Assembly (NCBI GenBank): GCA_934099115.1
Contig: CAKOPK010000001.1
Location: 85,756 to 149,755 of the forward strand
Direction: 5' to 3'
DNA length: 64,000 nucleotides
Origin: an uncultured Bacilli bacterium
Lineage (GTDB): Bacteria; Bacillota_I; Bacilli_A; RF39; UBA660
Part shown: positions 6,095 to 57,493 of the stretch, piece after piece
Position numbering within the stretch: position 1 is the first letter of the stretch
Layout: every line of letters starts with the position of its first letter
Position numbers and translations under genes: made by a program
Notes under the pieces: model-generated
Told to the model about the DNA's origin: nothing
Seen by the model: only the letters and a program-made list of their open reading frames with translations
Database searches by the model: none

Positions 6095-6556
6095 TTATAA
6101 TTTTTTTGTATTTGTTTTTCCTAAAAGATAGTCTGCACTTATATTATATTTCTTACAAATTGTATATAGAAAAGGAGTTGCTATTATGTTTTTTCCCCTT
6201 TCATACTCTGTTATGGTAGTTCTACTTACATTTAAAATTTTGGCTAATTTTTCTTGGGTTAGTTTATTTTCTTTTCTAAATTCTTTTAATCTAGTGCTAG
6301 ATAAAGCTTTATTTATATCTTCTTTTAGATCTTTATAAGTTAGTTCTTTATTAAATTTAAATATATAATCTATAGATACTTTATAGAAATTACATAAAGT
6401 ATTTAAGTGTTTAATGGGTATTATTCTAGTTTCATTTTCATAATGGCAATATTGAGTGTGATCTATTTTTAAAAGATTTGCTATATATATTTGAGATAGT
6501 TCTTTTTCTTCTCTTAAATATCTAAGTTGTATACCATAATTCATAATTACCACCAA
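6095..6556 (-). CDS. Tandem-HTH XRE-family transcriptional regulator (paralog 1 of 3)
   Basis: Two Cro/C1-type HTH units; C-terminal ~60 aa almost identical to the 7974..8426 and 17205..17657 proteins (…LKEFRKENKLTQEKLAK…YTICKKYNISADYLLGK). Confidence 0.7.
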   Translation of the reverse strand: MVVIMNYGIQLRYLREEKELSQIYIANLLKIDHTQYCHYENETRIIPIKHLNTLCNFYKVSIDYIFKFNKELTYKDLKEDINKALSSTRLKEFRKENKLTQEKLAKILNVSRTTITEYERGKNIIATPFLYTICKKYNISADYLLGKTNTKKL

Positions 6557-6616
6557 GTTAATTTTCTCATATAATTATTTTGCTTAATTTTTAGTTGGCA
6601 AATAATGACATTTTTG

Positions 6617-6645
6617 TTGACTTTCAATATACTTGATAATATAAT
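6617..6645 (+). promoter_or_regulatory. Perfect-consensus sigma-A promoter (TTGACT-17-TATAAT) for surface-protein paralog 1
   Basis: Lies in a ~85-bp block conserved upstream of all three paralogs; flanked by inverted hexamers TATACT…AGTATA. Confidence 0.6.
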
Positions 6646-6689
6646 TTTAGTATAGAGTAGAAAATTCTATGATAGAAAGGTGATAGAAA

Positions 6690-7937
6690 ATGAAAATAAA
6701 AACGTTAAAAAGAAATAGAAAATATTTTTATATGGGTATTATATGTGGAGTTATACTTCTTAGTATTTTAGTATTTAATGTATCAAGAGCTAAATATAAG
6801 AGTACGGAAAGTATTGAGCTTGCTAGAGGAACTATTAATTATACAGTTCCAGATTTAAATTTAGTATCTATGTATGTTAATGATAATGGAGAATATAAAG
6901 GAACAGATACAGTACCTCAGAGTGGTTATAAATTAAATCAAGAAAAAAGTTATTGTACAATTAATGGAAATAAAGAAAGTTCTATTATTATTGATTATAA
7001 TAATGGAAAATTAAATGTAAATAATTTAACCAAAAAAGGGACAAAATGTTATTTGTATTTTGATAAATTATCTGCAAAAGATACACTTGCAAAATTTAGA
7101 GGAATTAATTCTATATTAACTAGAACAGATTTTAGTACCATATTAAGCACAGATACAACCGGAACAATCTATAGTGCCGCAGATGATTATGGAACAAGTT
7201 ATTACTTTGCAGGAAATCCAACAGACAACTGGGTTAAGTTTGCAGGATTCTATTGGAGAATAATCAGAATCAATGGAGATGGAACAATAAGAATGATTTA
7301 CCAAGGAGATTCTGCTAATACAACGGGTACAGGAACTCAAATAGGAACAAGTACTTTCAATAGTAATTATAACGACAATATGTATGTAGGATATCAATAT
7401 ACAAACAATGAAGTACATGGAAGAGGAACAGATAGCAATATAAAGGGCGTTCTTGATAGTTGGTATAATAGCAATTTAAATAGTTATTCTGAGTATATTG
7501 CAACTGGAGAGGGAGCAACTTTTTGCAATGATAGACTGACTTATTTTGGTACTGGTTTAGATAATACCGATACTTTCTATGCTCCACGCAACAGACTTTT
7601 TGATAAAAAGGATCCAAGTTTCAAATGTCAAAATGATAGTGATAAATTTGATGTATCTATTGGATTAGTTACAGCAGATGAAGTAGCGTATGCTGGAGGT
7701 GTTTGCAATATTAATAATCAATCATATTACTTAAACACTAATCAGCAATATTGGACAATATCTCCAGGGCTTTTTTATAACGGTAATGTATATATGTTTA
7801 ATGTATATTCAGACGGAACTTTAAATGGTTACTATACTAATAATTTTTATGGCGTTAGACCTGTTATCAATTTAAAAGCCGATGTTAATTTTTCAAGTGG
7901 TAATGGTACTAATTCTGACCCTTTTCTTATATCTTAA
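6690..7937 (+). CDS. Secreted/surface protein, paralog 1 (415 aa): N-terminal TM/signal, conserved Cys-pair N-domain, YYFAGNPTDNWVKF…WRIIRINGDGTIRMIY core, conserved C-terminus GVRPVINLKADV.FSSG.GT
   Basis: Basic N-terminus plus a hydrophobic helix; three paralogs in the window share the same promoter and domain order. Confidence 0.65.
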   Translation: MKIKTLKRNRKYFYMGIICGVILLSILVFNVSRAKYKSTESIELARGTINYTVPDLNLVSMYVNDNGEYKGTDTVPQSGYKLNQEKSYCTINGNKESSIIIDYNNGKLNVNNLTKKGTKCYLYFDKLSAKDTLAKFRGINSILTRTDFSTILSTDTTGTIYSAADDYGTSYYFAGNPTDNWVKFAGFYWRIIRINGDGTIRMIYQGDSANTTGTGTQIGTSTFNSNYNDNMYVGYQYTNNEVHGRGTDSNIKGVLDSWYNSNLNSYSEYIATGEGATFCNDRLTYFGTGLDNTDTFYAPRNRLFDKKDPSFKCQNDSDKFDVSIGLVTADEVAYAGGVCNINNQSYYLNTNQQYWTISPGLFYNGNVYMFNVYSDGTLNGYYTNNFYGVRPVINLKADVNFSSGNGTNSDPFLIS

Positions 7938-7973
7938 AGTTTAATTTTAGAGTGACACTAGTAATAGTGTTTT

Positions 7974-8426
7974 TTATAATTTCATAGGATTATCTATTTT
8001 TCCCAAAAGATAATCTGCACTTATATTATATTTCTTGCAAATTGTATACAAGTACCCTGTTGATATTAAAGTATTATTTTTTTCATAACTTGATATTACA
8101 GAGTGACTTGTATTTAATAACTTTGCTAGTTTTTCTTGAGTTAGTTTATTTTCTTTTCTAAATTCTTTTAATCTTCTACATGTCTCTTCCCTATCTATTT
8201 CATCTCTTATATTTATATACTTTTTTTCTTTTGATAACTCAAATATATAATCTATTGATACTTGAAAATAGTTACATAGTTTATTTAAATGAGTTAAAGG
8301 AATTATTTTGTCTGCTATTTCATATTGAGAATACAACCCTCTTGAAATTTCTAGCATTTTTGATATTTCACTTTGAGTTAAATTTTTTTCGTTTCTTAAT
8401 CTTTTTAATGTACTTGTATAAAACAT
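7974..8426 (-). CDS. Tandem-HTH XRE-family transcriptional regulator (paralog 2)
   Basis: Same architecture and C-terminus as 6095..6556. Confidence 0.7.
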   Translation of the reverse strand: MFYTSTLKRLRNEKNLTQSEISKMLEISRGLYSQYEIADKIIPLTHLNKLCNYFQVSIDYIFELSKEKKYINIRDEIDREETCRRLKEFRKENKLTQEKLAKLLNTSHSVISSYEKNNTLISTGYLYTICKKYNISADYLLGKIDNPMKL

Positions 8427-8499
8427 TTAAATCACCAAAAGTATTGTCTCATTTTAAATTAAGCTGCAGAAGTTTATGCACCTAAATACGACATTTTTA

Positions 8500-8528
8500 T
8501 TGACTTTCAATATACTTGATAATATAAT
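8500..8528 (+). promoter_or_regulatory. Perfect-consensus sigma-A promoter for surface-protein paralog 2
   Basis: TTGACT at 8500-8505, 17 nt, TATAAT at 8523-8528; block near-identical to 6610-6690. Confidence 0.6.
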
Positions 8529-8572
8529 TTTAGTATAGAGTAGAAAATTCTATGATAGAAAGGTAATAGAAA

Positions 8573-9832
8573 ATGAAAATAAAAACATTAAAAAGAAATA
8601 AGTTAAAGAAGTATGGAGGAATTGTATTAGTGTTTATAGCAGTTATTGTAACAGTAGTACAATTAACATCAAGAGCTAAATATAGAACTACACAAAGTAT
8701 TAAACTTGCTAGAGGAACTATTAATTATACAGTGCCAGATTTAAATTTAGTATCTATTTATATCGAAGATAATGGAATTTATAAAGGGACAGATACAGTA
8801 CCACAAAGTGGTTATAAATTAAATTATGATAAAAGTTATTGTGCAGTAAATGGAAATAAAGATAGTTCTATAACTTTTGATTATAATAATGAAAAATTAA
8901 ATGTAAATAATTTAACAAAAAAGGGAACAAAATGTTATTTGTATTTTGATAAATTATCTGCAAAAGATACACTTGCAAAATTTGTAGGAATTAATTCTAT
9001 ATTAACCAGGACAGATTTTAGTACCATATTAGGCACAGATACAACTGGAATAATATATAGTGCCGAAGATGACTATGGAACAAGCTATTATTTTGCAGGA
9101 AATCCAACAGATAACTGGGTTAAATTTGGAGAATTCTATTGGAGAATAATCAGAATCAATGGCGATGGCACAATCAGGATGATATATCAAGGAACCAGTG
9201 CCAATACAACGGGTACAGGAACACAAACAGCAACAAGTGTCTTCAATGGTTATTCTAACGACAATATGTATGTAGGATACCAATACACAAGTGGATATGT
9301 TCATGGAAGAGGAACAGATAGTACTATAAAAGGAGTACTAGATAACTGGTATAACAGTAATCTAAGTGGTTATGCAAGTAAAATAGCAACAGGAGGAGGA
9401 GCGAATTTTTGTAATGATAGAACACCATATAGTGGAAGTGGTATAGGTACAAATGAAACCTATTATGCAGCTTATAATAGATTAGCAAGCAATAAAGCAC
9501 CAACATTAAAGTGTGCGGATACAAGAGATAGATTTGCAACATCAGTAGGATTAATCACAGCCGATGAAGTAGCGTATGCAGGAGTAGTAAATGGTTCTAA
9601 TAACTTTGGCTATTACTTATATACTGGCCATGATTACTGGACAATGGCTCCATGCATCTTAAACTCTAACGGTATTGCGGGCGTGTTCTATGTGACTTCG
9701 GGTGGCGCCCTCGGCGGCAGCATAGTAGACTGGACTAATCCTGGAGTCCGTCCTGTTATCAATTTAAAAGCTGATGTATCTTTTTCTAGTGGGGATGGTA
9801 CTGCTTCTAATCCGTATGTTGTTGCAAATTAA
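8573..9832 (+). CDS. Secreted/surface protein, paralog 2 (419 aa)
   Basis: Collinear with paralog 1; contains an ~90-bp GC-rich patch at 9665-9760. Confidence 0.65.
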   Translation: MKIKTLKRNKLKKYGGIVLVFIAVIVTVVQLTSRAKYRTTQSIKLARGTINYTVPDLNLVSIYIEDNGIYKGTDTVPQSGYKLNYDKSYCAVNGNKDSSITFDYNNEKLNVNNLTKKGTKCYLYFDKLSAKDTLAKFVGINSILTRTDFSTILGTDTTGIIYSAEDDYGTSYYFAGNPTDNWVKFGEFYWRIIRINGDGTIRMIYQGTSANTTGTGTQTATSVFNGYSNDNMYVGYQYTSGYVHGRGTDSTIKGVLDNWYNSNLSGYASKIATGGGANFCNDRTPYSGSGIGTNETYYAAYNRLASNKAPTLKCADTRDRFATSVGLITADEVAYAGVVNGSNNFGYYLYTGHDYWTMAPCILNSNGIAGVFYVTSGGALGGSIVDWTNPGVRPVINLKADVSFSSGDGTASNPYVVAN

Positions 9833-9833
9833 A

Positions 9834-9865
9834 AGTTGATAATGTAAAACTTATCAACTTTTGTT
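9834..9865 (+). terminator. Intrinsic terminator after paralog 2
   Basis: agttgataa (9834-9842) pairs with ttatcaact (9851-9859), followed by a T-run. Confidence 0.55.
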
Positions 9866-10046
9866 ATGAAATAAAAGTTATAATAAAGCTTGTTAAAAGA
9901 TAACTTCCTATAAAGCTTAGAGAAAGTACTAGTAGTTTTGCTTCTATTTCTTTATTTTGTTTCATTATAGCGTTTATATTTATACCATTAAATATAAAGA
10001 TAAACATCATTGTAAAGAATACATAAAGATAGATTTCTATTTTCAT
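9864..10046 (-). CDS. Small hydrophobic protein (60 aa) immediately downstream of rpiB
   Basis: Two predicted TM segments; 1-nt overlap with the rpiB stop; weak support. Confidence 0.25.
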   Translation of the reverse strand: MKIEIYLYVFFTMMFIFIFNGININAIMKQNKEIEAKLLVLSLSFIGSYLLTSFIITFIS

Positions 10047-10492
10047 TACTTTTCCTCATATTTTGTAATTGTTTCTACCCTTTTTAAATGTCTTTCTTCA
10101 CTTGGAGCTTTTGTATTAATGAAAGTATCTACAATGTCTTTTACAAGATTTAAATCTGTTGTTATGTCTGCTCCTAAAGCTATTACATTGGCTCCATTGT
10201 GATTTTTTCCTTTAAACGCATCATCTACTGATAACGCTCTAACACAACGAATTCCTTTTACTTTATTGGCAGCGATACTCATTCCTACTCCAGAACCACA
10301 TATTAATATACCTAATGAATTACTAGTATCTCTTACTTTTTCTCCTAAAGTAAAAGCAAACTCTGGATAATCATCATATTCACTGTTAGGTAATCCTATA
10401 TCTTCTACATCCAAACCATTATCTTTTAAATAGGGCATTAATTTATTTTTTAAAGTAACTCCCCTATGGTCACATCCAATATATATTTTCAT
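10046..10492 (-). CDS. rpiB: Ribose-5-phosphate isomerase B
   Basis: MKIYIGCDHRG…ICGSGVGMSIAANK signature of RpiB/LacAB. Confidence 0.85.
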   Translation of the reverse strand: MKIYIGCDHRGVTLKNKLMPYLKDNGLDVEDIGLPNSEYDDYPEFAFTLGEKVRDTSNSLGILICGSGVGMSIAANKVKGIRCVRALSVDDAFKGKNHNGANVIALGADITTDLNLVKDIVDTFINTKAPSEERHLKRVETITKYEEK

Positions 10493-10608
10493 TATATCCT
10501 CCTCTTTTATTTTAGCAAAAACTACTTTAATTGAAAATAAAAAATTAAAAACTATACTTAAACTTTACTTCAATTTTGATTTATTCTATAATTATATTGG
10601 TGATATAT

Positions 10609-11358
10609 ATGTTTACAGATACTCATTGTCATATTTTTAAAGAATACTATTCTAATATTGATGAAGTATTAGAACAGTCAAAAAATGTTGGTATCTCTAG
10701 AGTTATTAACAATGGGTGTAGCCATAAAAGTAATCAAGAAGTATTAGAATTAATAGAAAAATATCCTAATATGTATGGAGCTTTAGGAATACATCCAGAA
10801 GTTGTTGATACTTATCAAGAACAAGAATTGGATTTTATTATCAAACATTTAAATAATTCTAAAGTAATAGCTATAGGTGAGATTGGTTTAGATTATCATT
10901 ATACAAAAGAAAATAAAGATAAACAGATTATGCTTTTTAGTAAGCAGCTAGAAATAGCAGAAAAATATAATTTACCGGTTATTATTCATAGTAGAGATGC
11001 TACAGAAGATACAATAGAAACATTAAAGAAATATCATGTTAGAGGAGTTATTCATTCTTTTTCTGGTTCTTTAGAAACGGCTAAAATCTATCTAAAAATG
11101 GGATTTGCATTGGGCGTTAATGGAGTTATTACATTTAAAAATGCTAAATTAAAAGATGTTATTAAGGAAATAGATTTAAAATATTTATTGTTAGAAACAG
11201 ATAGTCCTTATTTAACTCCTGAGCCTTTTAGAGGTAAAACAAATTATCCAGGGAATGTTAGTATTATTGCAGATTTTATATGTAATTTAAATGATATTTC
11301 TAGGGAGGAACTGGCTTTTATTACCAACCAAAACATTAAACGTATTTTTGACATTTAA
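10609..11358 (+). CDS. tatD: TatD-family metal-dependent DNase/hydrolase
   Basis: N-terminal DTHCH motif and TIM-barrel hydrolase motifs; the upstream in-frame extension is probably not translated. Confidence 0.8.
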   Translation: MFTDTHCHIFKEYYSNIDEVLEQSKNVGISRVINNGCSHKSNQEVLELIEKYPNMYGALGIHPEVVDTYQEQELDFIIKHLNNSKVIAIGEIGLDYHYTKENKDKQIMLFSKQLEIAEKYNLPVIIHSRDATEDTIETLKKYHVRGVIHSFSGSLETAKIYLKMGFALGVNGVITFKNAKLKDVIKEIDLKYLLLETDSPYLTPEPFRGKTNYPGNVSIIADFICNLNDISREELAFITNQNIKRIFDI

Positions 11359-11400
11359 GAGAGTTTATGGTATGATTAATTTGTCGATTGAGGTGAAAAA

Positions 11401-11970
11401 ATGAGTAAAAATTTATTTTACTTTCGATATATATTTAAAGTTGGAGTATTAGTTATTTCTTTATTTTTATTAAATGCTTCTACTTTTAAGACGAAAAATT
11501 ATAGTACAAATGAAAATGTTAATAAAAATGTTAATTTATCTACGATGGCTATTTATATAAATAAAGAAGAGGAAGAAAAAGCTACTTATGAAGCTATGCA
11601 GACTTATCTTTGGGGTGTTTTAGATAGTTATACGGGGGATTTAACTGGTTATGGTGCAGATTGTCCATTATGTAGTGGGCGTCTTGCTTGTATGTCTAGT
11701 TTAGATTTAAGTAATGGTAGAAATACTTATGTTGATAAAACTTATGGTGAAGTACAAATTGTTGCTTCTAGTAAGAACTTACCTTGTGGGACTATTATTC
11801 GTTTTACTAGTAAAAGAATTAGTGAAAAGCCTATTGTTGCAATTGTTTTAGATAGAGGAGTTTTAGGGAATGATATTGATTTTTTAACTCCAAGTGAAGC
11901 TTATGCTTTAAAATATGTTGGAAGAAGTTCTATAACTTATGATGTTTTAAGATTTGGATGGGAAAAATAA
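11401..11970 (+). CDS. YabE-like 3D-domain protein
   Basis: N-terminal TM; C-terminal 3D domain (…IVLDRGVLGNDIDF…); sits between tatD and ksgA as yabE does in Bacillus. Confidence 0.5.
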   Translation: MSKNLFYFRYIFKVGVLVISLFLLNASTFKTKNYSTNENVNKNVNLSTMAIYINKEEEEKATYEAMQTYLWGVLDSYTGDLTGYGADCPLCSGRLACMSSLDLSNGRNTYVDKTYGEVQIVASSKNLPCGTIIRFTSKRISEKPIVAIVLDRGVLGNDIDFLTPSEAYALKYVGRSSITYDVLRFGWEK

Positions 11971-12755
11971 TGACAGAGATAAAAGCTAAAAAAAGTTTAG
12001 GGCAGAATTTTCTCAATGACGAAAATGTTTTAAAAAATATAGCCGATAGTATTACTACAACTAATCAAGATTTAATTATTGAGGTTGGGCCTGGTAAAGG
12101 AGCTTTGACTAAATATTTATTAAAAAAAGATGCTTATTTAGTGTGTTATGAAGTGGATTTAAGACTTAAAAATATTCTAGCTACTTATCAAAACGAGAAA
12201 GCCAAAATTATATATCAAGATTTTTTACAAAGTGATATTTTAGAGGATACTAAAGATATGATTTATCAGGATGTTTATATGATTGCTAATATCCCCTATT
12301 ATATTACAACTCCTATTATTAAGAAAGCTATAAATATTCCTAAATTAAAGGCTATGACTTTATTAGTTCAAAAGGAAGTAGCGGAGAGATTGACTGCTAA
12401 ACCAGGAATGAAAGCTAATGGTTCTCTTACTTTGTTTTTAAATTATTATTTTCAAATTGATTATTTATTTCAAGTAAAAAATACTTGTTTTACTCCAGTT
12501 CCTAAAGTAGATAGTGCTGTCGTTTTATTTAAGAAGAAAGAAGAGCCTAAAGTTATTAATAAAGAACATTTATTTCAATTAATAGAGGATGCGTTTCGCT
12601 TAAAAAGAAAAACTCTTAGAAATAATCTTAAGGATTATGATTGGAATATTATTAAATCTGTTTTAGAGAGTCATCAATTATCTTTAGCGGTAAGAGCAGA
12701 AGAATTATCTTTAGATATATTTATAGAAATATCTGATAAATTAAATTCTTATTAG
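11958..12755 (+). CDS. rsmA: 16S rRNA (adenine1518/1519-N6)-dimethyltransferase
   Basis: LGQNFL…EVGPGKGALT SAM-binding motifs. Confidence 0.9.
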   Translation: MGKIMTEIKAKKSLGQNFLNDENVLKNIADSITTTNQDLIIEVGPGKGALTKYLLKKDAYLVCYEVDLRLKNILATYQNEKAKIIYQDFLQSDILEDTKDMIYQDVYMIANIPYYITTPIIKKAINIPKLKAMTLLVQKEVAERLTAKPGMKANGSLTLFLNYYFQIDYLFQVKNTCFTPVPKVDSAVVLFKKKEEPKVINKEHLFQLIEDAFRLKRKTLRNNLKDYDWNIIKSVLESHQLSLAVRAEELSLDIFIEISDKLNSY

Positions 12756-12795
12756 ATATTTTTTTATTTTTTGCATATATTTTAATGGTGGTTCT

Positions 12796-13560
12796 ATGGA
12801 AATCAAACGAGGACAATTGGTTACAAGAAAAAGCTATAATAATGATACTGTATTTAAAGTTATAAATATTAAAAACGATATTTATTATTTAAAAGGAATG
12901 GAAGTTCGTTTATTTGCTGATGCCTATAGTGATGATTTAGAAATATATACAAAGAAAGAAGAACCTGAAACAGAAGAAGAAGTTGAAAAATTGGATCGCA
13001 GTGAGTATTTTTATATACCTGGTAAAATACTACATATTGATGGAGATAGTGATTATTTAAATAAATGTCTTAATTATTATAAAAAAAATGGGGTTTATGC
13101 GATTGGTAAAAAAATTGTTGAAGAACATATTTATGAAAATATAACTGCTTTATTAAGAGAATATAAACCTGATATCGTTATTATAACAGGACATGATGCT
13201 TATTATTCTAAAAAAGGTGATATTCATGATTTAAAAAATTATCGTAATACAGAAAATTTTATAAAGGCAATACACATGGCTAGAAAATATGAAAAATCAC
13301 ATGAAAAACTTATTATTATAGCTGGGGCTTGTCAATCTAATTATGAAGAGCTAATTAAAGCAGGTGCTAATTTTGCTTCCAGTCCTAAAAGAGTTAATAT
13401 TCATGCTTTAGACCCAGCGATTATTGCTGCTAATGTTGCTTTAACTGAACGTAATCAAGAAATAGATTTATTAGATTTATTAGATAAAACAAAATATGGA
13501 CATGATGGTATGGGTGGTATTAAAACTAATGGACTCATGTATGTTGGATTTCCTAGATAG
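12796..13560 (+). CDS. yabG: Sporulation-specific protease YabG
   Basis: Collinear similarity to B. subtilis YabG (…PGKILHIDGD…ITGHDAY…AGACQS…ANFASSP…NIHALDP). Confidence 0.8.
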   Translation: MEIKRGQLVTRKSYNNDTVFKVINIKNDIYYLKGMEVRLFADAYSDDLEIYTKKEEPETEEEVEKLDRSEYFYIPGKILHIDGDSDYLNKCLNYYKKNGVYAIGKKIVEEHIYENITALLREYKPDIVIITGHDAYYSKKGDIHDLKNYRNTENFIKAIHMARKYEKSHEKLIIIAGACQSNYEELIKAGANFASSPKRVNIHALDPAIIAANVALTERNQEIDLLDLLDKTKYGHDGMGGIKTNGLMYVGFPR

Positions 13561-13568
13561 GAGGAATT

Positions 13569-13781
13569 TTGAATTTAGAATTTATTAAAGAAGAAATAAC
13601 TAAAAATAAGAATTGTGAGGTTACAATTACTGTTTATGGTATGAGAGGAAAAACAAATACTTATCATGGAATTATTCATGGAATTTATCCTAATATTTTT
13701 ACCATAATAGAGAGTGGTATCGAAAAAAGTTTTAGTTATTCAGATGCTATAACTGGGGATATTAGAATAAAATATGAGTAA
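13569..13781 (+). CDS. veg: Veg protein
   Basis: Veg-family similarity; TTG start 4 nt after AGGAGG. Confidence 0.7.
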   Translation: MNLEFIKEEITKNKNCEVTITVYGMRGKTNTYHGIIHGIYPNIFTIIESGIEKSFSYSDAITGDIRIKYE

Positions 13782-13855
13782 AGACTTGCTATTTGTTTAT
13801 TTTTGCTATAGAATATAATTAAGTTCAGTATGACTTTAGAAGGGAAAAGAAATTT

Positions 13856-14110
13856 ATGCAAATTACATCAGTAACTGTTCGTAAGATTGAAAAGGGAGAC
13901 ACAAGAATGAAAGGAATTGCTTCAGTTTTAATAGATGATTCTTTTGCAGTTCATGATATTCGTATTATAGAGGGAGATAATGGATTATTTATTGCTATGC
14001 CAAGCAGAAAAACTGCTACTGGTGGATATAGAGATATAGCTCATCCAATTAGTCCAGATGTAAGAAAGATGTTTGAAGATGCTATTTTAAACGAATATAA
14101 TAAAAATTAA
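13856..14110 (+). CDS. spoVG: Septation protein SpoVG
   Basis: MQITSVTVRKIE…MKGIASV…IIEG.NGLFIAMPSRK SpoVG signature. Confidence 0.85.
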   Translation: MQITSVTVRKIEKGDTRMKGIASVLIDDSFAVHDIRIIEGDNGLFIAMPSRKTATGGYRDIAHPISPDVRKMFEDAILNEYNKN

Positions 14111-14177
14111 AGCTTGCTTAGGCAAGTTTTTTTCATATTATTTTCCTTTTATTCATATATTTTAGTAAAGGAGGACT

Positions 14178-14474
14178 ATGCATATGGATAAGACTTTAGA
14201 AATAGCAAGTTATGGTAGTCATGAATTAAAAATAATTGACCGTAGAGAAATATCTTTAACTGGTATTAAAAAAATTACTAGTTTTGATAGTGAGGAATTT
14301 TTATTGGAAAGTAATATGGGTATTATTTTGATTAAGGGTAGTAATTTAGAAATTATGAAGTTAGATACTCATGATGGGAATGTTAAAATAAAAGGTAAAA
14401 TTAATGGTTTTAATTATTTAGATAATAAAGAAAAAGTAAAAGAAGAAAGTTTATTATCTAAATTATTTAAATAA
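14178..14474 (+). CDS. yabP: Sporulation protein YabP
   Basis: YabP-family similarity and yabP-yabQ-divIC synteny. Confidence 0.7.
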   Translation: MHMDKTLEIASYGSHELKIIDRREISLTGIKKITSFDSEEFLLESNMGIILIKGSNLEIMKLDTHDGNVKIKGKINGFNYLDNKEKVKEESLLSKLFK

Positions 14475-14475
14475 T

Positions 14476-14790
14476 ATGAATGCTAAAACACAAATAATAG
14501 CTCTTTTACTTTCTTTTTTATACGGATTTATTTTTGCTATTTTAGCTAGAATAAATGCTATAATTGTAAATAAGCAGAAAAGATATTATCGTAGCTTTAT
14601 TACTGTTCTCTTTATATGTAATATTGTTCTTTTATATATTATTCTTATTTTTAAATTAAATCATGGGATATTTCATCCCTATTTCTTTATTATGATGGGA
14701 CTTGGTTATATATTAGGTTTGTATATACAAAAAAAAGTGTCAAATAATAGCAAATATTTGCAATACGTTGAAAGAAAGAAAAAAAAATGA
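14476..14790 (+). CDS. yabQ: Spore cortex biosynthesis membrane protein YabQ
   Basis: Small three-TM protein directly after yabP. Confidence 0.6.
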   Translation: MNAKTQIIALLLSFLYGFIFAILARINAIIVNKQKRYYRSFITVLFICNIVLLYIILIFKLNHGIFHPYFFIMMGLGYILGLYIQKKVSNNSKYLQYVERKKKK

Positions 14791-14817
14791 TATACTTGTG
14801 ATAATAAGGAAGAAGGG

Positions 14818-15123
14818 ATTTATATAAAAAGGAAGGTAACTAAGAAAGAAAAAAGAAGGCTAACTTTATTTATTTTTGCTTTTATATTTTTGATTACTTT
14901 AACTTGCATAAATATATTTCCTGATTGGTTAAAAATTATGGCAAATAAAAAAGAAGTTGCCCTACTTCAAGATAATTATGAACAATTATTAGATAATGAA
15001 GAAGCTTTAAAAGCAGAAGTACAAAAATTGCAAAATCCGGAATATGTAGAAAGATATGCGAAAGAAAAATTTTTATATACCAAAGATAATGAAATTATAA
15101 TAAGAAAAACAGATGCAAAGTAA
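14818..15123 (+). CDS. divIC: Septum formation initiator DivIC/FtsB-like; no canonical start codon upstream of its TM helix
   Basis: Basic stretch KKEKRR + TM + coiled coil matches DivIC. In frame the only ATG/GTG/TTG (TTG 14890) lies after the TM; AGGAAGAAGGG is followed by ATT(14818)/ATA(14824). Confidence 0.55.
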   Translation: MYIKRKVTKKEKRRLTLFIFAFIFLITLTCINIFPDWLKIMANKKEVALLQDNYEQLLDNEEALKAEVQKLQNPEYVERYAKEKFLYTKDNEIIIRKTDAK

Positions 15124-15136
15124 TAGCGTCTTTTTT

Positions 15137-15385
15137 TTAGGAGCGATTTTCATAAAATTTTTCAATACTAACATCTAAGATATGAGAAATATTCCATAGT
15201 ACTGGAATACTTATTCCTAAAACTTTACCTGTTTCTAAAGAACAAATAAGACCTGTAGAAACGTTACACATTTTGGCTTGAGAAGTTCTTTCATTTAGAT
15301 GATTGGCGTTATAGATATTTCAATAACTTCTTACATTAGCACCTATTATTTTAAAAATATCGCCTCTTGTTTCTTTAACATATAA
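15137..15385 (-). pseudogene. Small XRE-family HTH regulator with an in-frame TGA (MLYVKETRGDIFKIIGANVRSY*NIYNANHLNERTSQAKMCNVSTGL…)
   Basis: HTH_3 pattern spans the TGA codon; the downstream internal ATG would give a product lacking helix 1. Confidence 0.35.
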
Positions 15386-15463
15386 CATGGTGATTACTAC
15401 TTTCTTTTTTAAATAATACCATAGAGAAATTGCTATTTTTTTCAATTTGATTAAATAGGGGTT

Positions 15464-16495
15464 ATGTGTTATAATGATGTTCGAGAGGAAAATGTTTATA
15501 TGATAAAAATTAATAATAAAAATATTAAAAAGGAACTAAAGAAAAAGAATGTTTTAATAGTTAGTATTGTTTTATTATTTTTAGCTATTATATTATTCTT
15601 TATTGGTACTTATAATATTACAGAAAATGAGAAAAAAGCTGTTTATTTAAACGATATTATTGAAAAAGATGATAATGATATAGACAGAAGTGCTTATTTA
15701 AATGTAGCTTATAATCCCTATTCTTTTGCTAAATATGAGGGTGAAAATGATAGAGCTTTCTATATAGTAAGTGATAGTCAATATTTTTATATTGTATATA
15801 TGGATGATAATTTATATAAAGAATTAAATAAAGATGATATAAAAGATAATCATGTTAAAATATATGGGGTTACTAAAGATATTGATAGTGGTATTAAAGA
15901 ATTAGCTTTAGATTCTTATAATGAAGGATTAGATGATGAAGATAAGATTACTATGGATGACTTTAATACTATGTTTGGTAATGTTTATTTAGATACGACT
16001 ATTTCTAATGATTTAGGGGGATTATTTTATGCGATAGGTTTTGTTTTAATATTTATAGCAATTATCTTCTTAATCACTTATATTATTATTAAGATTAGAA
16101 TAAATAAAAAGCTTAAAAATATAGATGAAGAAGAATGGATAAAAATAGAAAAGGAAATAGAAAAAGAAGATAGTATTTATTATAAGAAAGCTCATTTAAT
16201 ATTAACTAAACATTATATTGTTTCATTTAGTTTAGGACTTGATATATATAGTTATCAGGATATTATCTGGATATATGAAAAGAAATTAAGACAATATGGG
16301 ATTACTACTATGAAAGCAATTATAGTAGTAGATACTAATAAAAAAGCACATACTTTAGTAGAAATGCAAGGATTTACAAAAAGTTCTAAATTAACTATTG
16401 AAGAAATTATGCAAAATATTAGTAGTAAAAATAATAAGATATTAATAGGATATACTAGTGAAAACAGAAAGCTAGTAAAGGAATATACAAATTAA
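15464..16495 (+). CDS. Hypothetical two-TM protein; real start probably ATG 15500 (MIKINNKN) behind GAGAGGAAAA
   Basis: Long ORF with one N-terminal and one internal TM; no family recognised. Confidence 0.5.
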   Translation: MCYNDVREENVYMIKINNKNIKKELKKKNVLIVSIVLLFLAIILFFIGTYNITENEKKAVYLNDIIEKDDNDIDRSAYLNVAYNPYSFAKYEGENDRAFYIVSDSQYFYIVYMDDNLYKELNKDDIKDNHVKIYGVTKDIDSGIKELALDSYNEGLDDEDKITMDDFNTMFGNVYLDTTISNDLGGLFYAIGFVLIFIAIIFLITYIIIKIRINKKLKNIDEEEWIKIEKEIEKEDSIYYKKAHLILTKHYIVSFSLGLDIYSYQDIIWIYEKKLRQYGITTMKAIIVVDTNKKAHTLVEMQGFTKSSKLTIEEIMQNISSKNNKILIGYTSENRKLVKEYTN

Positions 16496-16522
16496 AGTGT
16501 AACATAGTTATACTTTTTTTGT

Positions 16523-17194
16523 TTGATCATATATTTTAATATGAAAAAGATATATAAAATTTTAATTATAAGTATATTGTTAATAAGTGCTTTATTTATC
16601 AACAATAAAGTAGAAGCTTTATTACCTTTAAGTGGAAAGATTATAGTTATTGATCCAGGTCATGGTGGTAAAGACCCAGGATCTACTGACGGAAATATTA
16701 ATGAAAGCAATATAAATTTAAGTATTAGTAGATATTTAGAATTAGAATTATCTAAGATGGGAGCTAGTGTTATTTTAACTAGGGATGGAGATTATGATTT
16801 AAGTAAGCCTAATGCTAAATGGAGAAAGAAAAGTGATTTTGATAATAGGATTAAGTTAATAAATAATAGTAATGCTGATTTATATTTGTCTATTCATTTA
16901 AATTATTTAACTGATTCTTCTTATTGGGGAGCTCAAGTATTTTATTCTGATGAAAAAAATAAAGAAATTGCTAGTTCTATTCAAAAAATTATTAATGATG
17001 AACTTAAAAACAATCGTGAAGAAAAGAAAATACCTTCTAAAACATATATGTATAGTAAATTAAATAGACCAGGAGTTTTAATAGAATGTGGTTTTTTGTC
17101 TAATGAAAAAGAAAAAAATTTGTTAATAACTCAAGAATATCAGCAAAAGTTAGCTAAAGTAATTACAAATGGGGTTATAGATGTGTTTAATTAA
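16523..17194 (+). CDS. cwlD: N-acetylmuramoyl-L-alanine amidase, CwlD-like (Amidase_3)
   Basis: IVIDPGHGGKDPG…ADLYLSIHLN zinc-amidase motifs. Confidence 0.75.
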   Translation: MIIYFNMKKIYKILIISILLISALFINNKVEALLPLSGKIIVIDPGHGGKDPGSTDGNINESNINLSISRYLELELSKMGASVILTRDGDYDLSKPNAKWRKKSDFDNRIKLINNSNADLYLSIHLNYLTDSSYWGAQVFYSDEKNKEIASSIQKIINDELKNNREEKKIPSKTYMYSKLNRPGVLIECGFLSNEKEKNLLITQEYQQKLAKVITNGVIDVFN

Positions 17195-17204
17195 AATAAA
17201 AAGA

Positions 17205-17657
17205 CTATTTTAAATATTTAGGAGATTCTATTTTTCCTAATAAATAGTCTGCACTTATGTTATATTTTTTGCAAATTGTATATAGAAAAGGAGTTGCTAT
17301 ATAGTATCTTCCCCTTTCATAGTCAGTAATTGTAGAATGTGTTGTATTTAAAATATCTGCTAGTTTATTTTGAGTTAATTTTTTTTCTTTACGAAATTCT
17401 TTAAGACGTTTTCCACTTTCTTTTTTGTCTATTTCTGATTTAAAATTATCATATTTTTTGACATCATTAAATTCAAAAACATAATCTAAAGAAATATCTA
17501 AATAATTACATAAAGTATTTAAATGTTTTATTGGTATTATATCTTTTTCTGTTTCATACATACTATATGTAGAATTTTTGACATTAATTATATGCATTAT
17601 ATCTAATTGTTTTATTTCTTTTTCTTCTCTTATATCTCTTAATTTTTTGCTATACAT
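17205..17657 (-). CDS. Tandem-HTH XRE-family transcriptional regulator (paralog 3)
   Basis: Same architecture and C-terminus as the other two. Confidence 0.7.
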   Translation of the reverse strand: MYSKKLRDIREEKEIKQLDIMHIINVKNSTYSMYETEKDIIPIKHLNTLCNYLDISLDYVFEFNDVKKYDNFKSEIDKKESGKRLKEFRKEKKLTQNKLADILNTTHSTITDYERGRYYIATPFLYTICKKYNISADYLLGKIESPKYLK

Positions 17658-17733
17658 ACCTTTTCACATCCAAAAATATTGTCTCATATTAACGTCTTAG
17701 CAAAATTTTGTTTCGGAAATACCTGCATTTTTC

Positions 17734-17762
17734 TTGACTTTTAATATACTTGATAATATAAT
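17734..17762 (+). promoter_or_regulatory. Perfect-consensus sigma-A promoter for surface-protein paralog 3
   Basis: TTGACT at 17734-17739, 17 nt, TATAAT at 17757-17762. Confidence 0.6.
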
Positions 17763-17801
17763 TTTAGTATATGGTAGAGAATTCTAAGAGAGGTTAGAAA
17801 A

Positions 17802-19853
17802 ATGGAAATAGAAACATTAAAAAGGAAAAATAAATATTTTTATTTAGGAATTATATGTGGGGTTATACTTCTTGCTATAGTGGGATTTAGTACTTCAAGA
17901 GCCAAATATAAAACAACACAAAGTATAAAATTAGCAGAAGGCACTATCACTAATTATAGTACCGCAGATGTAAATGTCGCAGTCTATTGGGGAGACAAAG
18001 CAAAGAGTGCATTTCCAGATAAGAATAGTGGTTATCAATTTGATAAAGTAGTATGTAGTGTAGAAAGTATAGCAAATAAAGCAACATGGTCCAATGAAGC
18101 GTGGTCACTTAATATGGAAGTAACAGAACCAGTTAAATGTTGGATATATTTTACATATACTCCAGAAATGAGTTTATCATTAAGTGGAGATTATACGAAT
18201 AAGACAGTAACAATAACCAATGATTTTAAATCAACCAATTTATATAAAGTAACAAAATATTATTATAGTTTAGATGGAACTAATTATGTAGAAAGTACAA
18301 ATAATAGTTATACATTTACAGAATGGCAAGGAGTAAAGTTAAGTGCATCTAAATATACAATTTATACGAAAGCGGTAGATGAAGAAGGAAATGAAACAAG
18401 TGTAATAACAGGATCTATCTGGTTAGATAATGCAGCCCCAAATTTAATGTTTAATACGGGATCTAATACAGTAGGAAATAATGGATGGTATAAATCATAT
18501 ACGATGAATATAAAAGCAACAGATGAAAATAACATAGGAACTTTCCAATATTGTGTAACAACTAGTACAACATGTACACCAAACATCAATATAAATGCAG
18601 GAACAACAGAAGCAAGTTATAACTATACGTTTGGAACAGCAAGTAGTGGACAAAGAGTATGTGCAACCTCAACAGATATTGTAGGAAACAATACCGGAAT
18701 AAAATGTTCAGAAGCATATAAAGTAGATGTAACAAAACCAACGATATCTAATATGAGTGCGAGTGTAAACAATAAAACAATAAACATATCAGTAAATGCA
18801 ACCGATGTAGGAAGTGGAGGATTAACATACTTCTACAGTATAGATGGAGGAAGAAATTATACATCTAGAACAAGCAACACTTACAGTGTTACAGTAGGAG
18901 CAGGAACCTACAGTATTTATGTATATGTAGTAGACGCAGCAGGGAATCAAAGTGCGGTAAAGACAACGAGTGCAGTGATTAACAATCCATTAAAAGAAAC
19001 AATTCTTGCAAATTCACCGACAATAACAACAAGAACAGATTTTAGTACAACCGTAACAAATACAAATACTGGAACATTATATACAGCGGCAGATGATTAT
19101 GGAACAAGTTATTACTATGCAGGAAATCCAACAGACAACTGGGTAAAATTTGCAGGTTTCTATTGGAGAATCATTCGATTAAATGGAGATGGCACCATCA
19201 GAATGATCTATAATGGAACTACAACAAATCAAACAGGAGAAACAACTCAAATAGGAACAAATTCTTTTAATAGTAGCTATGACAGCAATTTATATGTTGG
19301 TTATCAGTATGCTGATGGTGAAGTCCATGGAAGAGGAACAGATAGTACAATAAAAGGTGTGTTAGATAGTTGGTATAGCAGTAATCTAAGTAGCTATGCA
19401 AGTAAAATAGCAACCGGAAATGGAGCAGCATTCTGCAATGATAGAACTCCATATAATGGACAGGGAATAGGAAGAATTGAAACATATTATGCGGCATATA
19501 ATAGATTAATAACAAATAAAACTCCAACTTTAAAATGTAACAATACCAATGATAACTTTAATGTTTTCGTAGGCTTAATTACGGCTGATGAAGTAGTTTA
19601 CGCTGGTAGCATATATTATCCATTTAATACTGTTTTTTACTTATATACAAATCAAAGTTATTGGACTATATCTCCATCTCATACTGATTGTGATGGATGG
19701 GCAGATGTATTTCACATAGGGGCTAATGGTACACTAAGCACATATGATCGTGTTACCAACACATTTGGTGTTAGACCAGTAATCAACTTAAAATCAGATG
19801 TATCTTTTTCTAGTGGAAATGGAACTTCTTTTGACCCATATGTAGTTTCATAA
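17802..19853 (+). CDS. Secreted/surface protein, paralog 3 (683 aa), with two inserted Ig-like repeats (Y.YS.DG..Y……AGN.S pattern)
   Basis: Same N-terminus, central core and C-terminus as paralogs 1 and 2, plus a ~270-aa insertion of tandem Ig-like modules. Confidence 0.65.
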   Translation: MEIETLKRKNKYFYLGIICGVILLAIVGFSTSRAKYKTTQSIKLAEGTITNYSTADVNVAVYWGDKAKSAFPDKNSGYQFDKVVCSVESIANKATWSNEAWSLNMEVTEPVKCWIYFTYTPEMSLSLSGDYTNKTVTITNDFKSTNLYKVTKYYYSLDGTNYVESTNNSYTFTEWQGVKLSASKYTIYTKAVDEEGNETSVITGSIWLDNAAPNLMFNTGSNTVGNNGWYKSYTMNIKATDENNIGTFQYCVTTSTTCTPNININAGTTEASYNYTFGTASSGQRVCATSTDIVGNNTGIKCSEAYKVDVTKPTISNMSASVNNKTINISVNATDVGSGGLTYFYSIDGGRNYTSRTSNTYSVTVGAGTYSIYVYVVDAAGNQSAVKTTSAVINNPLKETILANSPTITTRTDFSTTVTNTNTGTLYTAADDYGTSYYYAGNPTDNWVKFAGFYWRIIRLNGDGTIRMIYNGTTTNQTGETTQIGTNSFNSSYDSNLYVGYQYADGEVHGRGTDSTIKGVLDSWYSSNLSSYASKIATGNGAAFCNDRTPYNGQGIGRIETYYAAYNRLITNKTPTLKCNNTNDNFNVFVGLITADEVVYAGSIYYPFNTVFYLYTNQSYWTISPSHTDCDGWADVFHIGANGTLSTYDRVTNTFGVRPVINLKSDVSFSSGNGTSFDPYVVS

Positions 19854-19884
19854 TGTTTATAAGTTATGTGTTATTCACAATGTA

Positions 19885-19909
19885 AAAAGACAGGTTGGCT
19901 GTCTTTTTC
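19885..19909. terminator. Bidirectional intrinsic terminator between paralog 3 and mfd
   Basis: agacag (19888-19893) pairs with ctgtct (19899-19904), flanked by A-runs and T-runs. Confidence 0.6.
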
Positions 19910-19914
19910 ATTTA

Positions 19915-19936
19915 AATTATTTCCTGGGAAATAATT
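19915..19936. repeat. Palindromic element copy D (AATTATTTCCTGGGAAATAATT) overlapping the mfd stop codon
   Basis: One mismatch to the CCCGGG-core palindrome found in recF, dnaX and the methyltransferase gene. Confidence 0.6.
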
Positions 19937-29189: not shown

Positions 29190-29200
29190 ATTCCTCCATA

Positions 29201-29277
29201 AAAAAAGTGCACACAAATAGGGATTGATGTGGCTGCTATCTTCCGATTCTGACCAGGTTACAATATATTTGTTGCAC
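29201..29277 (-). ncRNA. ffs: Signal recognition particle RNA (short 4.5S-type)
   Basis: Domain IV motif ACCUGGUCAGAAUCGGAAGAUAGCAGCC (compare E. coli ACCAGGUCAGGUCCGGAAGGAAGCAGCC); 5' GUGCAACAAAUA pairs with 3' UAUUUGUGUGCAC; ends in a U-run; promoter-like TTGCTA…TGgTAAATT upstream. Confidence 0.65.
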
Positions 29278-29333
29278 ATATATAATTTACCACATTTTTA
29301 AGTATTTAGCAAGTATAAAATGATATAGATTTA

Positions 29334-57269: not shown

Positions 57270-57321
57270 AAAATAAAGGAACTCAGGAAAGAGTTCTTTT
57301 ATCTTTTATTCTGGGTTAAAA

Positions 57322-57432: not shown

Positions 57433-57493
57433 TCTTTTACCTCCTTTTTTTCTTCCTTTTGTTTAAATCTATATCAAATAATTTAAACCATGT

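Follow-up and report, generated by a model that had tools for sequence, protein, structure and literature searches.

Bacterial surface-protein families diversified by gene conversion, such as the MgPa/vsp-type families of Mycoplasma, Neisseria pilE/pilS and Borrelia vlsE, combine many paralogs per genome with segmental exchange and with strain hypervariability confined to surface-protein genes. The three gene pairs described here, found in a 64-kb stretch of DNA (the window) from an uncultured Bacilli bacterium, share these features. Unlike those families, which keep one expression site and silent cassettes, every window copy has its own strong promoter and regulator, and neither a site-specific invertase nor a repeat-tract switch was seen. 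C-type-lectin folds also occur in DGR variable proteins (Mtd, TvpA and phage 'tentaclins' with DUF6273), where adenine-directed mutagenesis generates the diversity that in the window comes from many paralogs and gene conversion. Phages use and hypermutate the C-type-lectin-like DUF6273 fold as a receptor-binding domain (PMC10743442). A further DUF6273 (PF19789) example is the C-type-lectin-like N-terminal domain of the Thomasclavelia ramosa IgA protease (PDB 9QA6), which is dispensable for activity and has no known ligand (PMC12237041). There the domain is an appendage of a sortase-anchored protease, whereas the window proteins are small, anchored at the N-terminus, and carry the modelled domain as their C-terminal head.

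The window regulators resemble XRE repressors and controllers such as ImmR of ICEBs1, PezA, C.BclI and RstR in their HTH_3 domains, divergent genes and predicted intergenic operators. Classical XRE members bind palindromes as dimers, whereas in the window regulators a single chain carries two different HTH domains, which appear to read two different hexamers spaced by one helical turn. Such single-chain two-domain reading is functionally like that of engineered single-chain 434 repressors and of eukaryotic POU or paired domains. Two XRE HTH domains are likewise present in Wolbachia Wmk (PMC12504857).

Each window module is probably an autonomous cassette, in which a lectin-headed exported protein (S) is paired with a private tandem-HTH repressor that reads its own 16-bp operator. 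Three two-gene cassettes, each with an XRE gene on the (-) strand and a divergent S gene on the (+) strand, were recovered with the coordinates and S lengths (415, 419 and 683 aa) given in a preliminary description of this DNA. Their features are as follows:

6095..6544, (-): XRE1, tandem-HTH regulator, 149 aa from ATG at 6544; two HTH_3 matches; recognition helices IDHTQYCHYEN (HTH1) and NVSRTTITEYE (HTH2)
6594..6609, (+): predicted operator of module 1, GTTGGC-AAAT-AATGAC, once in the window; hexamer 1 for HTH1, hexamer 2 for HTH2
6610..6654, (+): core promoter of module 1, ATTTTTG, -35 TTGACT 6617-6622, 17-nt spacer, -10 TATAAT 6640-6645, then TTTAGTATA
6690..7937, (+): S1, 415 aa
S1 aa 11-31: signal/anchor helix
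S1 aa 32-56: juxtamembrane motif
S1 aa 57-127: Ig-like stalk
S1 aa about 140-415: modelled C-type-lectin-like head
S1 aa 359-387 (nt 7764-7850): family-hypervariable hairpin
7974..8426, (-): XRE2, tandem-HTH regulator, 150 aa; helices ISRGLYSQYEI and NTSHSVISSYE
8477..8492, (+): predicted operator of module 2, TGCACC-TAAA-TACGAC, once in the window
8493..8537, (+): core promoter of module 2, -35 8500-8505, -10 8523-8528
8573..9832, (+): S2, 419 aa, architecture as in S1
17205..17657, (-): XRE3, tandem-HTH regulator, 150 aa; helices VKNSTYSMYET and NTTHSTITDYE
17711..17726, (+): predicted operator of module 3, TTTCGG-AAAT-ACCTGC, once in the window
17727..17771, (+): core promoter of module 3, -35 17734-17739, -10 17757-17762
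17802..19853, (+): S3, 683 aa
S3 aa about 50-122: first Ig-like domain, N-terminus as in S1/S2
S3 aa 120-400: three extra beta-modules
S3 aa about 405-683: modelled lectin-like head
19884..19908, (+): terminator-like hairpin 3' of S3

The XRE1 gene stands, and its start is probably the ATG at 6544 (GGTGG Shine-Dalgarno, 149 aa) rather than position 6556; an independent assembly also has it called as a 149-aa gene. The ribosome-binding site reported for all modules, AAAGGTGAT, holds for module 1 only, and modules 2 and 3 have AAAGGTAAT and GAGAGGTTAG, respectively. An assembly artefact is ruled out by the identical layout in ENA assemblies ERZ28615098 (99.9% identical) and ERZ27287094 (98.4% identical). 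A DUF6020 gene adjoins module 1; it is not a recurrent family neighbour among the best 80 loci.

In structural models the S head is an enlarged C-type-lectin-like domain of the DUF6273 type, a ligand-binding type of fold. The AF2 model of S1 has a pLDDT of 86.6; the two helices and roughly six strands of the core fold can be recognised in the head, and the structural similarity to the solved DUF6273 domain supports the receptor-binding role suggested earlier. Against Pfam DUF6273 (gathering threshold 23.5 bits), S1 scored 19.4 bits, with just its last 54 residues matching, and S2 and S3 had no match, and precomputed PF19789 matches are carried by some S homologs. Searches of Pfam, NCBIfam, PHROGs and PADLOC with the S proteins returned only sub-threshold DUF6273, OmpL47-type and unnamed PHROG matches, and a profile search of PDB sequences found no relevant relative; in these HMM and fold searches the proteins fell outside well-characterised or housekeeping families, as had been supposed. 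The canonical Ca2+/sugar motifs (EPN/QPD and WND) and the sortase C-terminal motif LP.TG (LPXTG-type) are absent from S1-S3. The common N-terminal, core and C-terminal motifs are present, as are two Cys pairs (C89/C120 and C279/C313 in S1). The two extra repeats noted in S3 are homologous beta-modules (aa 120-212 vs 310-400; 34% identity, E 8e-14), and a third, Cys-rich beta-module between them had been missed; domain borders in the S3 stalk are approximate because the model pLDDT there is 40-65. The S protein would thus comprise an N-terminal signal/anchor helix directing export, an Ig-like stalk of variable length and a C-terminal lectin-like head. This head would bind a ligand, for which glycans or surface structures, either of the host or of neighbouring microbes, are the likeliest candidates. 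S1-S3 may act as adhesins, and their copies may be expressed exclusively.

The signal/anchor helix is followed by a conserved [ST][RK]A|KY site, where the signal peptide may be cleaved, and then by a conserved extended segment. The juxtamembrane residues 32-56 of S1 are among the most conserved parts of the protein (0.7-0.9 bits), yet their pLDDT in the monomer model is <50. This would suit polymer subunits of a TasA- or pilus-like fibre, in which the N-terminal segment, after signal-peptide cleavage, serves as donor strand to the next Ig-like domain. The pattern A|KY..T[QE]S....GT[IV]NY resembles what we take to be the N-terminus of TasA/camelysin, and weak fold matches to chaperone-usher subunits and a Bacteroides fimbrial protein point the same way. 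However, TasA, camelysin and SipW-cognate signal models of Pfam and NCBIfam did not match the S proteins. The proposed search for sipW or sortase genes found neither recurring beside family members in 80 loci, where XRE was the only recurrent neighbour, and relatives with 7-11 heads in a single chain look like monomeric adhesins. A fibre is thus unlikely as the role of the S proteins.

The XREs score on the phage repressor families RstR, PHROG 8 and PHROG 3; for RstR (NF041951; 80-bit cut-off) the scores of 80.2, 83.5 and 67.4 bits are sums over two HTH stretches against a one-domain model. Phage receptor-binding proteins carry DUF6273 heads (PMC10743442), and phage DUF6273 and receptor-binding proteins match the S head with E 4e-7 to 8e-4. 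The cassette might on these grounds be a defence or mobile-element module that joins a phage-derived receptor-binding or surface-exclusion protein to a phage-type repressor. We consider this very improbable: PADLOC anti-phage defence HMMs matched none of S1-S3 and only generic HTH models matched the XREs, the S family is essentially absent from viral contigs (one CTLD-only relative in 2.9 M; IMG/VR), and the cassettes stand singly among housekeeping genes, away from any integrase or phage gene.

Gene conversion among the modules, proposed in the preliminary description, is supported by mosaic informative sites (p<0.0005) and by strain comparison. Whole modules are 70-75% identical to one another. 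The near-identity from which conversion had been argued holds for the promoter block (97-98% between modules 1 and 2; 82-88% between either and module 3) and for part of the stalk of S1 and S2, but not for the regulator C-termini or the gene 3' ends, which over 60-nt segments are 75-92% and about 65-81% identical, respectively. Between the window and a conspecific strain, differences per 100 nt were 0-0.45 in the flanks, 0-0.7 in the XREs, 2.1 in S1, 1.6 in S2 and 16.4 in S3. The stalk of S3 is kept in that strain, and its head (only 65% identical) and signal peptide have been replaced, the latter with the S2 base at 31/33 differences. Multiple paralogs with demonstrable segmental exchange place the S genes with the surface families diversified by gene conversion. 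Such exchange would swap heads and signal peptides among paralogs and so give rise to strain-to-strain variation. The paralogs differ mainly in a surface hairpin of the head. Across the family, variability peaks in this hairpin (2.35 bits at aa 359-387 of S1), directly N-terminal to the invariant GVRPVINLK. The window modules do not form a single expression site with silent donor cassettes, as a full promoter and start codon are present in all three copies and in most relatives. DGR diversification was rejected: the window has no template repeat, the variable segments matching only the paralogs' conserved 3' ends within it, and the neighbourhoods of 80 loci show no recurrent RT-like gene.

The common promoter block is a firm feature of the three modules. 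Its 38-mer TTGACTTT[C/T]AATATACTTGATAATATAATTTTAGTATA has exactly three copies in the 64 kb, where 0 would be expected, and holds TTGACT-17-TATAAT together with the TATACT/AGTATA arms flanking the -10. This repeat had been taken for the regulators' binding site; as an operator common to all three, it would imply that the paralogs cross-repress. It is present in 3/3 modules, and spacers from one genome look more alike than those from different genomes. Many relatives carry CTAGCT/AGCTAG in about the same place, which means that the two arms differ together. Nevertheless, differences in the recognition helices are not mirrored in the spacer or the -10 flanks (r about 0-0.15), a 6-bp repeat is found in only about half of the relatives, the arm spacing varies (3 vs 9 nt after the -10), and the downstream arm within the box is invariant despite widely varying helices. 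A common operator at the -10 is hence quite improbable. The downstream arm could instead bind some other factor common to the modules, or form one side of a stem in the 5' mRNA. Leader RNAs in the window form weak hairpins only (-3.6 to -5.4 kcal/mol), and an Rfam search of the region gave no match.

The sites that determine regulator specificity are predicted to lie within -23..-8 upstream of the -35, at -23..-18 and -13..-8, and differ in each module. Each regulator has, as first described, two HTH_3 domains above the Pfam threshold (79-96 bits vs a cut-off of 23), and the closest solved relatives of these domains are the repressors or controllers ImmR, PezA and C.BclI. Covariation was examined in 46 related modules by partial Mantel scans, which replaced raw mutual information because the latter was dominated by column entropy; partial correlation, positional specificity and independent assortment control for phylogenetic non-independence only in part. 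The HTH1 helix covaries with -23..-18 (partial r 0.53, family-wise p 0.002) and, more weakly, the HTH2 helix with -11..-6 (partial r 0.33, p 0.02), and r is about 0 at other positions. Among the 46 modules, those that share the HTH1 helix but not the HTH2 helix match at 5.75/6 positions of hexamer 1 and 1.75/6 of hexamer 2, and those that share only the HTH2 helix at 1.85/6 and 4.46/6, respectively. This helix-hexamer code also applied to 12 modules outside the sample, two new domain combinations among them, and the module 2 helices are accompanied by identical hexamers in two relatives (L065 and L074). In these regulators, unusually for a natural system, DNA-recognition specificity appears readable from sequence, two independent HTH modules each tracking their own hexamer beside a constant strong promoter.

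In the repressor cassette that we favour, a regulator monomer would bind the bipartite operator (hexamer 1, (A/T)AAT, hexamer 2), its HTH1 reading the distal and HTH2 the proximal hexamer. Because helices and hexamers differ among the window modules, each regulator would control its own S gene only. The predicted operator lies directly beside the ATTTTT tract and the -35 of a consensus promoter that does not vary otherwise, and binding may repress this intrinsically strong promoter by blocking the UP-element/-35 region and may also autoregulate the regulator's own promoter on the opposite strand. Sites upstream of a core promoter are positions that activators use too. The operator is centred at about -51 from the inferred S start, upstream of the core promoter and not over it, and lies between the divergent promoters. 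Measured from the inferred XRE start it is at about -40 to -49, much as in lambda PRM, and this geometry may allow activation or bistable switching. In the XRE promoter a conserved TRTGAGAAAAT is present but a -35 is not recognisable. The tandem-HTH protein might then be an activator or lambda-cI-like switch that activates its own weak promoter and represses or spares the S promoter, each module being a heritable ON/OFF toggle of epigenetic phase variation. We hold this to be possible, although rather less likely than repression: each module has a single operator and lacks an OR1-3-like array through which cooperativity could arise, the S promoter already matches the consensus and so requires no activator, and TTGACT-17-TATAAT tracks the tandem XRE (27/36 family genes vs 1/35, namely 0/26 without XRE and 1/9 with a short XRE), which fits a strong promoter needing restraint.

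Beyond the single cassette, we tentatively suggest that nature has built, in these regulators, a library of single-chain DNA readers that are orthogonal to one another and whose helix-to-hexamer code is modular and domain-swappable. The cassettes would then be independent, possibly bistable switches, since modules with private regulators could switch independently. If so, lectin heads could be displayed in heritable, combinatorial mixtures by any genome that has at least 10 cassettes. No DNA rearrangement would be needed for this, and the heads themselves would be renewed by gene conversion. The regulators could also supply orthogonal repressor/operator pairs for Gram-positive synthetic biology.

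The S family is huge, uncharacterised and gut-bacterial. A word-index search gave 5,919 matches, and 10,561, 7,013 and 3,400 clusters were found at E 1e-3, 1e-10 and 1e-30, respectively. These lectin-headed exported proteins, numbering in the thousands and head-swapped between strains, are prime candidates for attachment to host, mucus or other microbes and for escape from antibody or phage. The bacteria that carry them are uncultured gut Bacilli that are almost unstudied; they are deposited as 'Mycoplasma sp. CAG:776' or as uncultured Bacilli, Mycoplasma, Tenericutes or Mycoplasmatota and are common in human gut metagenomes. Among the best 80 loci, single MAGs carry up to 10 family loci. The pairing with a regulator is kept in relatives, with a tandem XRE beside 45/97 family genes and short HTH genes beside more.

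The main new result is the regulators and their predicted operator. Each of three modules (M1–M3) pairs an XRE regulator (XRE1–3) with a divergently transcribed secreted protein (S1–S3), and all three, first noticed in a preliminary description, were recovered in the ORF listing of the window:

6095-6556, minus strand, XRE1 of M1, as an ORF
6690-7937, plus strand, S1 of M1
7974-8426, minus strand, XRE2 of M2
8573-9832, plus strand, S2 of M2
17205-17657, minus strand, XRE3 of M3
17802-19853, plus strand, S3 of M3

The XRE1 start is most likely the ATG at 6544, with a GGTGG Shine-Dalgarno sequence ahead of it; an independent assembly annotates the gene as 149 aa. Two HTH_3 domains (HTH1 and HTH2) were found in each XRE, in agreement with the tandem-HTH description. 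The common promoter block also held up, as a 38-mer with TTGACT-17-TATAAT and TATACT/AGTATA arms is present in all three intergenic regions (three copies in the window versus zero expected). The supposedly common RBS in fact differs from module to module, and the "near-identical" 3' ends are actually 65–92% identical in 60-nt windows, that term suiting only the M1/M2 promoter block (97–98%). Whole modules are only 70–75% identical at the nucleotide level. S1 is 71% identical to S2 and 58% to S3, and the protein motifs listed earlier are common to all three. The order DUF6020-XRE-S1-XRE-S2-rpiB...cwlD-XRE-S3-mfd recurs in two ENA assemblies made independently from other samples, which excludes an assembly artefact. 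The DUF6020 multi-pass membrane protein (4236-6080, plus strand; E 2e-66) lies immediately upstream of M1, and a 60-aa hydrophobic ORF (9864-10046, minus strand), called without annotation in both independent assemblies, lies between S2 and rpiB, directly downstream of S2.

The exact promoter accompanies the tandem regulator. A divergent tandem-HTH XRE adjoins 45 of the 97 family genes in the loci compared, and a short single-HTH gene stands beside many others. Of the genes that are full-length and have 700 bp or more upstream (71 in all), those beside a tandem XRE have exact TTGACT-17-TATAAT in 27/36 cases, those beside a short XRE in 1/9, and those without an XRE in 0/26. In a promoter-anchored alignment of 34 modules, the ATTTTTn-TTGACTTT stretch, the -10, and the box just downstream of it (TTAACTATAAGCTAGGAAAC in most relatives, TTTAGTATAGAGTAGAAAAT in the window) are nearly invariant despite widely different recognition helices, and therefore carry no regulator specificity. 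In about a dozen genes (L026, L027, L035, L039, L063, L076, L078, and others), a divergent single-HTH gene of 65–106 aa replaces the tandem regulator; promoters of this class have their own repeated elements, e.g., TAGCGATATGCTATAT and TAGCAAAGTGCTATAT in L012. A second class (L010, L019, L020, L021, L030, L041, and others) has AAGTTTTGACAAGTTTTGTCGAA upstream, followed after ~40 nt by TGATAATATGC and AAAAGAGGA. The consensus promoter is missing from this class, and in many members no XRE adjoins the gene, suggesting that this part of the family is under other control.

Recognition helices covary with two hexamers upstream of the -35. A sliding-hexamer partial Mantel scan, with the rest of the protein controlled for and positions numbered from the start of the -35, linked the HTH1 helix to -23..-18 (r 0.53, family-wise p 0.002) and the HTH2 helix to -11..-6 (r 0.33, p 0.02). 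The two peaks are 10–11 bp apart, i.e., one helical turn. Outside them the signal is ~0, including in the spacer and -10 flanks, which does not favor an operator over the -10. ATCCCG pairs with IYKGLYNQYET beside three different HTH2 helices and hexamers, and (A/G)CCAAA pairs with NCSYGTIAGYE beside three different HTH1 helices; HTH2 helices of the ..THSVI.., ..TQSVI.., and ..QP.. types go with CGAC, CGAT, and CTAT, respectively. Such pairings show that HTH1 and HTH2 assort independently with their predicted hexamers. The code also holds in twelve new metagenome modules, two of which (loci L102 and L118) combine domains in new ways. Pairwise comparison of all 46 modules, judged from sequence, is a double dissociation of helices and putative hexamers:

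Hexamer matches in pairwise comparison of all 46 modules
Same HTH1, different HTH2 (12 pairs): hexamer 1, 5.75/6; hexamer 2, 1.75/6
Same HTH2, different HTH1 (52 pairs): hexamer 1, 1.85/6; hexamer 2, 4.46/6
Both helices different (740 pairs): hexamer 1, 1.48/6; hexamer 2, 2.39/6
Both helices same (17 pairs): hexamer 1, 5.76/6; hexamer 2, 5.76/6

Physical linkage as the cause of this covariation is ruled out, because the HTH2 coding DNA is farther from the operator than that of HTH1, yet it is the XRE-distal hexamer that HTH2 tracks, and the stretch from the XRE start to hexamer 1 correlates little with the helices. The predicted operators in the window are as follows:

6594-6609, M1, GTTGGC-AAAT-AATGAC, single occurrence in 64 kb
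8477-8492, M2, TGCACC-TAAA-TACGAC, single occurrence in 64 kb; predicted DNA target of XRE2, TGCACCTAAATACGAC
17711-17726, M3, TTTCGG-AAAT-ACCTGC, single occurrence in 64 kb

Since all three differ and each occurs once, XRE1–3 are each predicted to be private to their own module, which argues against the alternative that the regulators cross-repress the paralogs through the shared promoter block.

The sequences show a constant, near-consensus promoter, a module-specific bipartite site abutting the -35, and a divergently encoded cognate single-chain two-HTH protein without a ligand-binding domain; the proposed mechanism builds on these parts. We infer that the tandem-HTH XRE binds its operator as a monomer, and it may also autoregulate its own promoter. 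Toward the XRE gene, TRTGAGAAAAT is conserved ~24 nt past hexamer 1 and ~8 nt ahead of a GGTGA Shine-Dalgarno sequence; it is probably the extended -10 of the XRE promoter, so that the operator would fall near the -35 position of that promoter. Relative to the inferred S start the operator is at about -51, and relative to the inferred XRE start at about -40 to -49, a geometry that also permits activation or a lambda-like switch in place of plain repression. We lean toward XRE as a repressor of S, which would occupy the UP-element/-35-proximal region; repression is most likely because the promoter is intrinsically strong and found only where an XRE is present. The -10 inverted repeat may be the site of a shared factor or may supply one strand of a stem at the mRNA 5' end. 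In relatives the leaders are long, with a 5'-terminal stem of 10 bp and another hairpin ahead of the Shine-Dalgarno sequence, and covariation in them is slight; the window leaders are short, fold weakly, and lack this long-leader type. The long leaders (85–100 nt, two forms, in L004, L005, L006, L014, and others) all begin with UAUAAGCUAGGAAAC, which pairs with nearby UAGCUUAUA to form the 5'-terminal stem or with a distal GCCUAGC, and a AAAUGAAG...CUUCA hairpin is conserved just ahead of the Shine-Dalgarno sequence. The 17-nt promoter spacer appears, by impression from the alignments, to vary less within a genome's cassettes than across genomes. The three in the window are near-identical, and UMGS1172 and BRZ_HC_bin52 show one distinct type apiece, even though operators are private. 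This likeness suggests that core promoters evolve in concert or that each genome has a shared factor of its own.

No library gave S1–S3 a name; matches to DUF6273 in S1 and to an OmpL47-type Ig-like domain in S3 are sub-threshold. The AlphaFold2 model of S1 (pLDDT 86.6) contains:

aa 11-31, helix
aa 30-56, low-confidence segment
aa 57-127, small beta-sandwich
aa about 140-415, alpha/beta domain

In S3 the first Ig-like domain is retained and three further beta-modules are present, including a mutually homologous pair. Two-headed relatives exist, those of about 700 aa with heads in tandem, and giant relatives of 3.5–4.9 thousand aa have up to 7–11 heads per protein (7 in P0134, 3,528 aa, and 11 in P0135, 4,905 aa, counted as stretches matching the lectin-like head within a single chain). 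The variable stalk length and head number fit a surface-displayed binding protein. At the N-terminus, a 20-residue hydrophobic helix follows a basic tip, with an almost invariant [ST][RK]A-KY that would fit the -3/-1 rule for signal peptidase I. The Y[RK]xT[QE]SIxLxxGT[IV]NYxxxD motif that comes after it is more conserved than the stalk (0.7–0.9 bits) and unstructured in the monomer model.

Variation of the S proteins is greatest in the head. Family-wide entropy peaks at S1 aa 359-387 (2.35 bits), a beta-hairpin immediately ahead of the invariant GVRPVINLK, and an insertion hot spot follows S1 aa 323 in the family alignment. Informative sites of the window modules group pairwise (permutation p <0.0005 for each pair): M1 with M3 in the XRE 3' part and signal peptide, M1 with M2 in the promoter and stalk, and M2 with M3 in the mid-head. 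Comparison with a conspecific assembly, L083, gave the following:

Differences per 100 nt between the window and L083
Flanking genes: 0-0.45; yabG, 1.6
XREs and promoters: 0-0.7
S1: 2.1
S2: 1.6
S3: 16.4

S3 codons 1-40 in L083 have the S2 base at 31/33 differences, i.e., an S2-type signal peptide, and the S3 stalk is almost unchanged. The S3 heads (L083:19230-21260 versus window 17802-19853) are only 65% identical, the distance of two paralogs; the L083 head is 72% identical to S2 and identical to neither S1 nor S2, and therefore came from another, unseen paralog. Many S1 and S2 polymorphisms agree with the other paralog. The S2 bases in the signal peptide, the divergent head, and these polymorphisms show that inter-paralog gene conversion and head replacement are ongoing, and together with the mosaic sites they strengthen the earlier proposal of gene conversion. 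The parts belong to known kinds, namely XRE HTH regulators, a C-type-lectin-like DUF6273 head, and a multigene surface family under gene conversion; our literature search found no paper on the S family, the tandem-HTH pairing, or the bipartite helix-hexamer code. Strain-level head swapping and a readable modular recognition code would surprise specialists in gut microbiology or transcription factor specificity, and are directly testable.

The S-protein family is very large. A word-index search gave 5,919 matches, and an exhaustive profile search gave 10,561 (E 1e-3), 7,013 (E 1e-10), and 3,400 (E 1e-30) clusters at 50% identity. The matching genomes belong to uncultured gut Bacilli (database names 'Mycoplasma sp. 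CAG:776', uncultured Bacilli, Mycoplasma, Tenericutes, and Mycoplasmatota) and Candidatus Caccenecus (Bacilli incertae sedis), with up to 10 loci per MAG within the best 80 of at least 567 genome matches; metagenomes added 552, many with a human gut label. Cassettes are single and flanked by housekeeping genes. Across 80 loci, the XRE gene is the only recurrent neighbor, and no sipW, sortase, reverse transcriptase, or DUF6020 gene recurs beside family genes, the first two having been raised in the earlier description. Among 2.9 million viral contigs, only one relative was found, which has the head alone of the S-protein parts. In this IMG/VR protein (L081:4441-7053, 870 aa), the lectin-like head is joined to an ALK/LTK glycine-rich domain (PF12810, E 3e-45); adjacent genes encode a DUF285 protein and an M23 peptidase that carries a CW_7 repeat.

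At about 19,860-19,935, between S3 and mfd, the genes change orientation and both GC skew and AT skew reverse; two other assemblies have the same layout. dnaA (37594-38940, minus strand), dnaN, recF, gyrB, and gyrA locate the replication origin at ~39 kb; transcription of the entire 1-19.9 kb block (uvrB ... yabG, veg, spoVG, yabP/Q, divIC, cwlD) is therefore head-on to replication. In Bacillus subtilis, tatD-ksgA-yabG-veg-spoVG and pth-mfd lie on one strand, and the arrangement here looks like an inversion with an edge coinciding with M3. The only Rfam match in the window is a bacterial small SRP RNA (29190-29288, minus strand; RF00169, 60 bits). Spo0A-like (49754-50524) and SpoIID-like (52708-53694) genes, read by eye, would indicate a spore former, and an agr-like quorum-sensing set (55301-58156) was also read by eye:

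55301-56005, response regulator
55998-57269, multi-pass membrane histidine-kinase-like protein
57494-58156, minus strand, AgrB-like membrane protein
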